64,000 nt of DNA, from contig JAJZRA010000002.1 in NCBI GenBank assembly GCA_021847485.1, positions 20,078-84,077 on the forward strand, written 5' to 3'. The translations under genes were made by a program, and so were the position numbers. Numbering within the stretch: position 1 is the stretch's first letter; each line of letters opens with the position of its first letter. Source of the stretch: a bacterium (GTDB taxonomy: Bacteria; Elusimicrobiota; Elusimicrobia; Elusimicrobiales; UBA9959). Of this stretch, positions 29,524-38,631 are shown piece by piece. Below the pieces are notes generated by a model, which saw only the letters and a list, made by a program, of their open reading frames with translations, searched no databases and was not told the DNA's origin.

Positions 29524-32500
29524 TCAGATCGGGGTCGGGATCATGGCGTAGTCGCGCAGCTCGGCCACGAGGCTGTAGGACCCGTCGAAGGCCCACGCGT
29601 CGTAGAGGCTGCGGTTGTCCTCGGTGCGGCCCTTGAAGACGCCGTAGAGGAACAGCGTCTCCGGGTCCAGCGGCTCGTTATCGTAGGCTATCGCCGCGCC
29701 TATCGCGTCGGGCAGCGCCATCGTCCTGTCGAACTGGATGTCGCGCCAGCCGCAGGCCTGGAACAGCGCCTCGAACACGAGCGGGTGGAACACCAGCTTC
29801 GGGTGCTGGCCTTTCCAGAGCGGGGCCTGGGGACGCTTGAAGACCGCGAGCACCGAGTCCTTCTCGGCCGAGATCACGCCGTCGAGGACCTGGAAGCTGG
29901 GCCCGTGGAAGTAGGTCTTGTAGATCGTCGCGGCGTCGGCCTTGTACTTCCTGTTCTTGGGCAGGACGGGGCGCATGCCGGAGTTCCACGCCGAGGCCGG
30001 CGCCTCGGCGGCCGCCAGGCCCTTGAAGTGGTTCCTGGTCTGGCCCAGGCGCAGGCCCTTGGGGCTGACGAAGTCCGATTCGATGCGCACCTCGCAGCCT
30101 TCGCCGGAGCCGAGGGCCAGGGCCTTGACCCTGACGTCGGCGGGGCGGCCGCGCAGCAGCTTGATAGGCACCGCGAAGCGCACCCCGGTGAGCGCCTTCG
30201 GCGGCGCGCCGGTGACGGCCGCCGCGGCTTCCGCGAAGGTCTCCAGGCCCATCACGCCCGGCACGTAAGGCGTGCCGTTGATGGCGTGGTCGGCCAGGTA
30301 CGGGTCGCTCTCGAGCGAGAACTCCTTGGTGGCGGTCAGGCTCTCCCCCTTCAGCAGGTCCTCGGTCTTAGGCGCGAAGTGGAACCCGGTGGAGGCGGTG
30401 GCCGAGAAGTCCGGCTCGTAGAGCAGCTGTTTGTCCCAGTCCAGCTTGCCGAGGCTGCCGGAGAGGATGATCTCCGGCACCTTGCCGTAGGCGAGCTCGT
30501 CGAGCAGGGCCTGCATGCCCTCCTCGGGGTAGAGGAACTCCATCTCCTGGGACTTCAGGAAGGCCTCCACGCCGGGGCGGGCGCCCATGCCGATCTGCGC
30601 GTAGCCGGTCATGTCCACGCTGAGCGCGCGGACGCCGCGGTTATGCTGGCTGACGCAGAACTTGGCTATGTAGTCGGAAGCCGCCGCGTAGTCGGTCTGG
30701 CCGAGGTTGCCGAACTTGCCGGCGATGGACGAGGCCATCACCCAGAAGCCCTTCTCCTTGACCGCGCCGGACTTCCACATGTGGATAGCGGAGTCCGCCT
30801 TCACGTTGAAGATCAGGTTGAACTCCTCGATGGTCTTGTCCACCGCGAGCTTGGAGCGCTCCAGCCCCGCGAAGTGGACCAGGCCGTCGACCTGGCCGAA
30901 GTCGGCCTTGATGTTCTCCATGACCTGGTAGAGCATCGCGGTGTCGGTCAGGTCGCAGCGGTAGTAGCTGACCTTGACCCCGAGCGCCCGGATGGCCTCC
31001 ATGTTCTTGTGCATGTCGGCCGCGTCCTTGAGCCGGGTGAACTCCTTCTCGAGCATGGCCGGCGTCGGCTTGTCGTTGGCCGCCTTGATCTCGTTCCAGA
31101 GCTCGCCCATCTTGTAGGCCTTCAGCTCGGCCTCGCTCATCGAGGTCAGGCGCTTGGCCTTGTCGCTGATGTCGATGATGTCGAGGACGATGATGTTGGC
31201 CCGGTGCTGCTCGGCGAGCATCCGCGAGAACATCGCGCCGAGGCCGCGGCCGCCGCCGGTGACGACGACGTTGCGGTCCTCGAGCTGCGTGGTCAGGCGG
31301 GACTTGTCCAGCGCCTGCGGTTTGCCGACCATCGTCCAGCGCTTGCCGTCGGCGTAGCCGATCGCGAGGCGCTTGTCGGAGTACAGGATCTCGTAGAAGG
31401 TCTTCTGCACGATGACCTGGTTGGAGGAGCTGGGCTCGAAGTCCAGCAGCTTGACCGCGCTCTTCTCGAACTCCTTGCGCAGGCACAGCGTGGGCCCGAA
31501 GATCGCGCCGTAGACCGGGTCGTAGGCGTCGCGCGTGCGGTAGCCGAAGCCGCCGTCGAGCGTGGTCACCACGGCCATGAAGGTCGTGAAGCCCGCGTCC
31601 ACCTTGTTCAGGCCCGCCGCGAAGTACTTGGAGGCGATGAACAGGGGCAGCGCGTAGCGCTTGAGGTCGGCGAAGGCCGACGTCTCCTGCGAGAGCGACT
31701 TGACCATGCAGCCGGGCAGGTAGACCAGGCCCTGCGTGTCGGGATGGGCCGAGGCGAAGTCCGCCAGGGCCTTCTCCAGCGCCGGGATGTCCCGGAAGTC
31801 CACCGTTATGGAGTCCTTCACCTTGGTCTTGGCCGGCGTGAAGATATAGGAGTCCGCGCGGTGCTTGTTGAGCTCGGCGCGGAACGCCTTGGCCAGGTCC
31901 AGGTCCTCGGCGAAGATGACGACGGGGCGCTTAGGGGCCAGCTTCTTGATGACCTCCTGCTCCACCGGCGCCTGCACGATGGAAGGAACGTGGCGGATAT
32001 GGCGCCTGGGATGCTCGGCCTTGGCGGGCTTGGGCGCGGGCTGCGCGGCGGGCGCTTCCTGCGGGGCCGCGGCCAGGTCCAGCAGCTCGGGCTGCTGCGC
32101 CTTGGAGGCCTTCTTCTTGGCGGCGGGGCGGGCCGGCTCGGCGGCGGGCGGCGCCGCCGGCGCGGGGGCGGCCGTCCCTGCCTTGGCTTCCAACACGAAC
32201 CTGATGCAGTGGCGTATCGTCGGGTAGTCCTTCAGCGAGACGTTCTCCTGGCGCGGGATGCTGTAATGCTCGCGCATCGCGGCGAAGAGCTCGGCCTGCT
32301 TGACGGTGTCGATGCCGAGGTCGGCCTCCATGTCGAGGTCGAGCTCGAGCATGTCCTTGGGGTAGCCGGTCTTCTCGGCGATCATGTTGAGGATGTTCTC
32401 CCTGACGGCGTCCTCGTCCGCGCCGGAGGGCGCGGCCTGGGGCGCGGGGGCCGGGGCCGGCTTGGGCTCGGAGTAGTGCTGCGGCTCCGGCAGCGGGGCC

Positions 32501-38631: not shown

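Follow-up and report, generated by a model that had tools for sequence, protein, structure and literature searches.

A catalogue of secondary lipid synthases published in 2011 (Shulse & Allen, PLoS One, PMC3098273) contains a class named Type R, which consists of a single pfaA homologue with the order ketosynthase (KS)-MAT-chain-length factor (CLF)-acyl carrier protein (ACP, 3-6 copies)-ketoreductase (KR), followed by a downstream 4'-phosphopantetheinyl transferase (PPTase) gene and sometimes accompanied by an acetyl-CoA carboxylase (ACC) gene. The hosts listed there are Elusimicrobium minutum, Koribacter, Solibacter and Roseiflexus, with Acidobacteria and Chloroflexi among the groups, and the product is not given. 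We analyzed a 64,000-nucleotide stretch of DNA (the window; G+C about 67%) from an Elusimicrobiales metagenome-assembled genome (MAG). In this window an open reading frame (ORF) at 29524..38631 on the minus strand encodes a PfaA-like iterative synthase of 3035 residues.

The ORF list, the translation and the Pfam and NCBIfam matches give the domain order KS1-acyltransferase (AT)-KS2-ACP5-KR-dehydratase (DH), and judged from its sequence the encoded protein in all likelihood belongs to the Type R family of secondary lipid synthases. The architecture KS1-AT-KS2-ACPn-KR-DH had already been catalogued in 2011, and the locus is a further member, from an Elusimicrobiales MAG lineage. An earlier reading of the same DNA, made from its letters alone (the sequence-only reading), had implied that the architecture was new. 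This did not hold: the same layout, with the downstream PPTase and an ACC gene, is found in PMC3098273, and the family is very widespread. That reading had also allowed for homologues that were already characterized; the same domain order is indeed catalogued, but the product is uncharacterized. Our literature searches found no later characterization of Type R, the 2011 catalogue being the sole relevant paper. Searches on hglE-KS clusters in these phyla, on polyunsaturated fatty acid (PUFA) synthases together with acyl-CoA dehydrogenase (ACAD) or electron transfer flavoprotein (ETF) genes, and on Asgard polyketide or fatty acid synthases returned nothing relevant.

Our preferred reading of the whole mechanism, to which we give a probability of roughly 45%, is that the protein works as a nearly self-contained iterative type I fatty-acid/polyketide synthase related to PfaA, with two KS domains, an enoyl reductase (ER) acting in trans and phosphopantetheine arms linked to threonine. 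It draws directly on the domain content, the conservation of active sites, the family membership, the threonine of the carrier domains and the ER partners found in relatives. In the proposed cycle the ACPs would be activated on threonine by the dedicated Sfp-type PPTase encoded downstream, and the malonyl-specific AT (HAFHS) would load them, with the co-encoded acyl-CoA carboxyltransferase (CT) aiding the supply of malonyl-CoA. The PfaA/PKS-type KS1 and the FabF-type KS2, both predicted to be competent, would divide the condensations between them; the analogy of KS-A and KS-C in PUFA synthases makes it most likely that each handles its own range of chain lengths. The KR and the PKS-type DH would process every beta-keto group, and an ER in trans would saturate most or all cycles. 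Such a cycle would be expected to yield a long and mostly saturated fatty acyl chain, possibly hydroxylated or mono-unsaturated.

The synthase, its family and its second ketosynthase

The domains of the synthase, all on the minus strand, can be placed as follows. KS1, a ketosynthase of PKS/PfaA type (residues 4-471, 37219..38622), matches PF00109, PF02801 and PF16197 and carries Cys212 in DAACAS together with AHGTAT. It is followed by the AT (residues 603-903, 35923..36825; PF00698 with 147 bits, TIGR00128 FabD with 209 bits), with Ser701 in GHSLGE and the malonyl-type motif HAFHS; the AT motifs are kept in 41 of 41 full-length homologues. KS2 is divergent and FabF-like (residues about 986-1543, 34003..35676; TIGR03150 fabF, 147 bits), contains a helical insertion and carries Cys1245, His1393, Lys1428 and His1433. 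Five tandem ACPs (32167..33834), each with DLGIDTVKQAE, were placed by PF00550 matches, by the tandem repeat and by codon positions; the array consists of 4.6 tandem copies of a 360-bp unit (32194-33816), in which the five carrier motifs lie. The catalytic subdomain of the KR (residues 2455-2675, 30607..31269; PF08659 with 96 bits, PF00106) shows TGGGRGLG and YAAAS, and the stretch of about 260 residues before it (residues 2190-2450), which has no Pfam match, is presumed to be the structural subdomain. The PKS-type DH (residues 2761-3035, 29527..30351; PF21089, PF14765) has HAINGTPYVP as its HxxxGxxxxP motif and HPLVFEALFQ as the second motif. The Pfam and NCBIfam calls agree with the order KS-AT-KS-(ACP)5-KR-DH given by the sequence-only reading, and all its motifs and residue numbers are correct (DAACAS Cys212, AHGTAT, GHSLGE Ser701, HAFHS, SAACAS Cys1245, SHETYTP, YAAAS and HAINGTPYVP). 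The best NCBIfam match of the whole protein is TIGR02813 PfaA with 958 bits, below the cut-off of 1010.1; NCBIfam holds no model specific to the Type R family, and the PfaA model is the closest.

To define the scope of the comparisons: neighbors were clustered over 80 fetched loci, motifs were surveyed in 41 full-length homologues, fusions were counted in 70 long representatives, and the architectures of library representatives were assigned by BLASTP with family-derived probes plus one PDB check of a FabK-like domain. A search with the KS2 region gave Elusimicrobia MAGs as the top matches, at no more than 91% identity in the protein library and at 98% in one genome locus (L001); further matches of about 45-50% came from Acidobacteriota, Chloroflexota, Actinomycetota, Myxococcota, Gemmatimonadota and others. 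When one genome per species was scanned, at least 600 matching stretches were obtained, 599 of which were confirmed as relatives, and an exhaustive HMMER search of 1.84 billion cluster representatives (E <= 1e-30) gave 545 clusters at 50% identity. The order KS1-AT-KS2-ACPn-KR-DH followed by a PPTase was observed in every sufficiently long locus among the 80. The locus of an E. minutum MAG (L009) is collinear with the window synthase, with 69-71% identity over KS1, AT and KS2, and the Acidobacteriaceae and Bryobacterales loci are also collinear, at 46-48% identity. Members of the Type R class abound in phyla of soil, groundwater and the gut.

The number of ACPs has to be read with care. Many MAG contigs of the family stop just past KS2, at the near-identical ACP repeats, and many loci end at about 12 kb. 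L001, the locus that is 98% identical over KS2, shows two ACPs against five in the window. Because contigs break at these repeats, ACP copy numbers in short-read assemblies of the family are unreliable.

Several lines of evidence bear on the nature of KS2. It lies nearest to type II FabF by NCBIfam (TIGR03150), by sequence search of the PDB and by fold search, in a comparison that included no PfaC KS or CLF sequence. Alignment with FabF pairs the catalytic residues of that enzyme with the Cys, the first His, the Lys and the second His of KS2, and Cys1245, His1393, Lys1428 and His1433 were invariant in a 13-sequence alignment drawn from multiple phyla. Of the 41 full-length synthases, nearly all show both KS Cys motifs. 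An AlphaFold2 model of KS2 (pLDDT 77.5) gave FabF structures as the top Foldseek matches, with a TM score of about 0.8 over the whole of FabF, normalized to FabF. Since its catalytic residues are invariant and its predicted fold is FabF-like, KS2 is, on alignment and model, a real ketosynthase of FabF fold, and the label "CLF" used in PMC3098273 is wrong.

Two other identities for this domain were considered and rejected. A chain-length factor (CLF/KS-beta) does not fit a domain that keeps the active-site Cys and an invariant Cys/His/Lys/His set. The sequence-only reading had likewise held that KS2 keeps its Cys and is not a Gln-type CLF, and had left room for a loss of the catalytic His residues; both are invariant. 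A recent duplicate of KS1 was rejected as well, the similarity shared by the two domains being a short patch of 28% identity around the Cys.

A larger variant of the family, of 3.5-4.0 thousand residues, was also found, with the order ER-KS1-(Cys-less CLF-like domain)-AT-KS2-ACPn-KR-DH (P0184, P0197, P0203, P0207, P0213, P0223, P0227, P0240 and others). Its CLF-like domain reads DAGSMSS instead of DAACASS, so that each polypeptide contains three KS-fold domains.

Threonine at the carrier attachment site

The five carrier domains of the window synthase match PF00550 (E = 6e-5 for one repeat taken alone, 3e-23 for the whole protein), and the ACP segment of TIGR02813 is matched with E = 4e-15. 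However, the conserved Ser of the carrier motif D-S-[LIV], at the start of helix II, is replaced: all five repeats read D-T-V. Thr1637, Thr1751, Thr1871, Thr1989 and Thr2109 occupy the phosphopantetheine-attachment position, with ACC codons at 33723, 33381, 33021, 32667 and 32307, respectively. When aligned with PigH, Streptomyces and other solved ACPs, the threonine falls on the attachment Ser, and no conserved Ser lies nearby. The sequence-only reading had missed this feature.

Threonine at this position is a property of the family. It was found in 223 of 223 ACP repeats from 72 loci and in 337 more repeats of the library representatives, about 560 in all, and the family motif reads DLG[IV]DTVKQ. 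All four Thr codons are in use at the site although Ser is one substitution away, which indicates that threonine is under selection there. Ser was found at the same position in three divergent representatives, namely in five repeats of P0169 (a Heimdallarchaeota MAG) and in one repeat each of P0255 and P0210. Since these rare orthologues carry Ser there, the threonine position appears to be still the attachment site. In addition, a PPTase with intact Sfp-type motifs always adjoins the synthase or is fused to it.

Full-text literature searches found no report of a phosphopantetheinylated threonine; as far as searched, threonine at the carrier site of a family is new. This silence of the literature counts against an arm on threonine. 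Together with the replacement of an otherwise universal Ser in some 560 repeats, it is what would be expected if the repeats were not phosphopantetheinylated at all, serving as structural or scaffolding elements or carrying the chain in another way, while a separate ACP acted as the true carrier. We regard this explanation as improbable. The threonine repeats are the sole carrier domains of the synthase, and a PPTase accompanies it, adjacent or fused, in every case. In the rare orthologues with Ser, this residue takes the place of the threonine within the same motif, and the retention of threonine across four codons points to selection on a hydroxyl-bearing residue. Moreover, the flanking DLGID-VKQxE is otherwise the ACP motif of PfaA, as the TIGR02813 match shows.

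We therefore return to an arm on threonine. Tentatively, and with a little less than an even chance, we propose that the arm is borne by Thr and not by Ser and is installed by a family-specific Sfp-type PPTase, and that the family represents a mobile, nearly self-contained module for making fatty acids, spread over at least 600 bacterial species and over MAGs of Thermoplasmatota and Asgard/Heimdallarchaeota. If true, the arm would be an undescribed protein modification, O-phosphopantetheinyl-threonine, and it may keep housekeeping PPTases and ACP hydrolases from acting on the synthase.

Enoyl reductases in the family and at the window locus

In relatives of the window synthase, an enoyl reductase is supplied in several forms. 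First, in 29 loci that span five phyla (Acidobacteriota, Myxococcota, Chloroflexota, Calditrichota and Actinomycetota), the synthase is preceded at a distance of 30-90 nt by an ACAD gene on the same strand. In NCBIfam this ACAD matches the reductive acryloyl-CoA reductase AcrC best, and it also resembles dehydrogenases that act on carrier proteins; here it would run in the reductive direction and act on ACP-bound enoyl chains. In Acidobacteria loci (within L041-L079) an operon for an Fe-S/CCG oxidoreductase, EtfB, EtfA and ACAD stands immediately 5' of the synthase (about 1.2-6.9 kb in locus coordinates), and a biotin carboxylase-biotin carboxyl carrier protein (BC-BCCP) fusion and a CT are encoded 3' of it. 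This ACAD/ETF operon suggests that the quinone pool feeds enoyl reduction there by way of ETF; such a chain, if it serves as the ER, would couple the making of lipids to that pool. Six of the Acidobacteria loci also have a WS/DGAT acyltransferase gene further 5', which hints at a transfer of the product into wax esters or acylglycerols in those hosts.

Secondly, a FabI gene lies directly 5' of the synthase in two Elusimicrobia loci (L030 and L031). Thirdly, three Anaerolineae loci that have no ACAD (L064, L066 and L073) carry a PfaD-like ER gene beside the PPTase. Finally, an N-terminal FabK-like ER is fused to the synthase in 20 of the 70 long representatives; the N-terminal region of one of them (P0137) matches solved FabK structures with E of about 5e-17. 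Because relatives supply an ER in four non-homologous ways, enoyl reduction seems to be a normal part of the synthase cycle.

The window itself presents a different picture. Pfam found no ER, no FabA/FabZ-type dehydratase and no thioesterase among the 30 window ORFs besides the synthase, and likewise no PfaB (AT), PfaC (KS-CLF with two FabA-type DH domains) or PfaD (ER) among the scanned ORFs. A tblastn search of the 64 kb with ACAD, EtfA/B, FabI and PfaD-like probes found nothing. The sequence-only reading was thus right that an ER, a FabA-type DH and a thioesterase gene are missing nearby, and right, within the window, about the missing PfaB, PfaC and PfaD partners. Its further step, that the product would stay unsaturated for want of an ER, is weakened by the relatives, which have an ACAD, FabI or PfaD-like gene as a neighbor or a FabK-like domain fused to the synthase. 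From the sequences compared, it looks as if ER activity is a normal requirement of this synthase that in this organism is not encoded nearby. Preferably, a distant ER, for example a housekeeping FabI, FabK or FabV, would serve the window synthase.

Several observations weigh against the preferred reading. Besides the negative tblastn result, most of the Elusimicrobia and Thermoplasmatota loci show no ER next to the synthase, and the clade of the window could truly lack the enoyl reduction step. FabI and the PfaD-like gene were each found beside the synthase in a single narrow lineage, where chance synteny could account for the arrangement, and ACADs normally oxidize. No off-loading enzyme, including a thioesterase, was identified by Pfam among the window ORFs, and we found no product reported in the literature for any Type R family member.

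Some of these points agree with the view of the sequence-only reading that the Elusimicrobiales synthase works without enoyl reduction and makes an unsaturated, polyene-like or hydroxy-acyl lipid. The enediyne polyketide synthase (PKSE), which makes a conjugated polyene, offers a parallel. PKSE is iterative and related to PfaA, has no ER domain and has a PPTase attached or adjacent, like the window synthase, with which it shares the set of KS, AT, ACP, KR, PKS-type DH and PPTase. Within the 64 kb there is no ER, ACAD, FabI or PfaD-like gene, and the flanks of the closest relatives (L001-L006 and L037) are likewise without an ER. Nevertheless, an ER is tied to the family in four independent ways, which include other Elusimicrobia (L030 and L031) and a fused domain. 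Set beside the ER-linked proteins, the window protein is an unremarkable orthologue, with 52-57% identity over KS2 and the same domains, and a housekeeping ER may be encoded elsewhere in the genome. An ER-less cycle is therefore considered rather unlikely, and supply of the ER from a distant gene remains our preferred reading.

Copies of the family were also observed on contigs binned as archaea, namely L036, L038, L039, L040 and L057 (Thermoplasmatota), P0137 (Asgard) and P0129, P0169 and P0020 (Heimdallarchaeota). P0137, of 3592 residues, is an all-in-one version that contains a FabK-like ER, KS1, AT, KS2, two ACPs, KR, DH and PPTase, and genes for a CT and a biotin carboxylase are present as well in the Thermoplasmatota loci. 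Provided that the contigs are binned correctly, these archaea could be capable of making fatty acyl chains, and the versions in archaeal MAGs that run from the ER through to the PPTase bear on the question whether some archaea make fatty acids.

Neighboring genes and comparison with known systems

The genes around the synthase are those named by the sequence-only reading (a PPTase, a CT, a GT-C membrane protein, cydAB and a hydrogenase operon). The Sfp-type PPTase of 222 residues (28842..29510, minus strand; PF01648 and PF17837) begins 13 nt past the stop of the synthase. It aligns with EntD and Sfp and has intact GxDxE and WxxKEAxxK motifs (LGLDLEKI and LWAVKEAAMK). A PPTase gene lies 3' of the synthase in 33 loci, and in 26 of the 70 long representatives the PPTase is fused to the C-terminus of the synthase.

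Next to it lies an acyl-CoA CT of the PccB/MmdA/AccD5 class, of 545 residues (27068..28705, minus strand; PF01039 with 596 bits, TIGR01117 with 705 bits, below the cut-off). A CT adjoins the synthase in Elusimicrobia, in Thermoplasmatota and in one Anaerolineae locus, and a CT gene, or BC-BCCP and CT genes, adjoin it across many phyla. Malonyl-CoA is probably supplied by the co-encoded CT. It could also be imagined that the CT makes a 2-carboxyacyl-CoA, as AccD4 does, and that KS2 is a terminal condensing enzyme of Pks13 type which joins two long acyl chains into a mycolic-acid-like branched beta-keto or beta-hydroxy lipid. Two very different KS domains, both predicted active, do occur in one protein, a PccB/AccD-class CT is conserved beside it, and the whole protein gives a generic Pks13 match in NCBIfam. 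This match has 384 bits against a cut-off of 2100, however, and KS-AT homology alone explains it. The protein has only one AT, with the malonyl-type HAFHS, there is neither a FadD32-like ligase nor a thioesterase, and the carboxylase genes of Acidobacteria resemble a normal acetyl/acyl-CoA carboxylase with BC-BCCP and CT. Terminal condensation is thus judged very improbable, and a division of the elongation steps between KS1 and KS2 is preferred.

Upstream of the synthase start, in an AT-rich spacer of 211 nt, a consensus scan gave a candidate promoter-like site with 9 of 12 matches (38746..38775, minus strand). Beyond it, a polytopic ArnT/PMT-like (GT-C) membrane protein of 541 residues is encoded (38843..40468, minus strand), with at least seven hydrophobic segments; Pfam gave no match for the window copy, and its orthologue in L005 matches PMT_2 with E = 1.6e-9. 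This gene is kept 5' of the synthase in seven loci. Because this placement is limited to the closest relatives, a functional link of the membrane protein to the synthase is uncertain. A second PMT_2/ArnT-like GT-C membrane protein is encoded in the window at 8417-10588 (plus strand), and a DUF6754 protein at 10639-11934 (plus strand).

On the plus strand, cydA (40623-41957) and cydB (42003-43031) were recognized through orthologues. An ORF of 647 residues at 40584-42527 on the minus strand was rejected as a gene; it has no family match, runs antisense to cydA and is an artefact of high G+C. Further along, a metallo-beta-lactamase-fold protein (43075-43914, plus strand) is followed by a 461-residue protein with a C-terminal CsgG/LpoB-like domain (44474-45859, plus strand). 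Orthologues of the latter occur near the synthase in 11 Elusimicrobia loci, where the metallo-beta-lactamase-fold gene accompanies them. Directly 3' of the CT lies an operon of about 11 genes (17586-26925, minus strand; Pfam) for a membrane-bound group-4 NiFe-hydrogenase/Mrp-like complex, with NuoB-, NuoC-, NuoD/NiFe large subunit-, NuoH- and ferredoxin-like subunits, three Mrp/NuoL-type antiporter subunits and a NuoK-like subunit. The adjacency is shared with L001-L003 and L012.

Three leads follow from the analysis: the so-called CLF is a second ketosynthase, predicted to be active; the ERs are interchangeable; and the carriers have threonine where textbooks hold Ser to be invariant. The carrier threonine and the interchangeable ER partners, in particular, are observations worth pursuing.

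Compared with Type R as described in PMC3098273, the window synthase has the same succession of KS, MAT, second KS-like domain, ACPs (five here, 3-6 there) and KR, with the downstream PPTase and the ACC gene. It differs in that the second KS-like domain, called CLF there, has a full KS catalytic set and that a C-terminal PKS-type DH, not listed there, is present. The text of PMC3098273 does not contain the word "threonine", so that an ACP Thr is not described, and it mentions no ER partner.

KS2 resembles FabF (PDB 4ls5, 4jrh and 1kas) in having the complete FabF fold and the aligned Cys/His/Lys/His residues. Unlike FabF, which is free-standing, it is embedded in a megasynthase, shares only about 20% identity and has about 150 residues of insertions, including the helical one.

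For the reductases of relatives, the nearest known systems are the Bcd/AcrC-EtfAB enoyl-CoA reductases. The ACAD of the 29 relatives is closest to AcrC, and Acidobacteria add EtfA, EtfB and the Fe-S/CCG oxidoreductase, a set that can be likened to the reverse-running chain of ACAD, ETF and ETF:quinone oxidoreductase (the 2-methyl-branched enoyl-CoA reductase of Ascaris). Unlike these systems, the window is without ACAD and Etf genes.

The enediyne PKSE contains one KS and one ACP, which bears Ser; it works with a thioesterase of its own, and enediyne tailoring genes surround its gene. The window synthase, in contrast, has neither a dedicated thioesterase nor enediyne tailoring genes nearby.

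Finally, unlike the canonical Pfa PUFA synthase, the window synthase misses the cut-off of TIGR02813, and no PfaB, PfaC or PfaD accompanies it in the window. With PfaA of the pfaABCDE omega-3 PUFA synthase it shares the backbone KS-MAT-tandem ACP-KR-DH (PKS-type), the ACP motif LGID-x-[IV]K and a dedicated Sfp-type PPTase; unlike PfaA, it has a FabF-like KS of 560 residues between the AT and the ACPs, and in its ACPs Thr replaces Ser.

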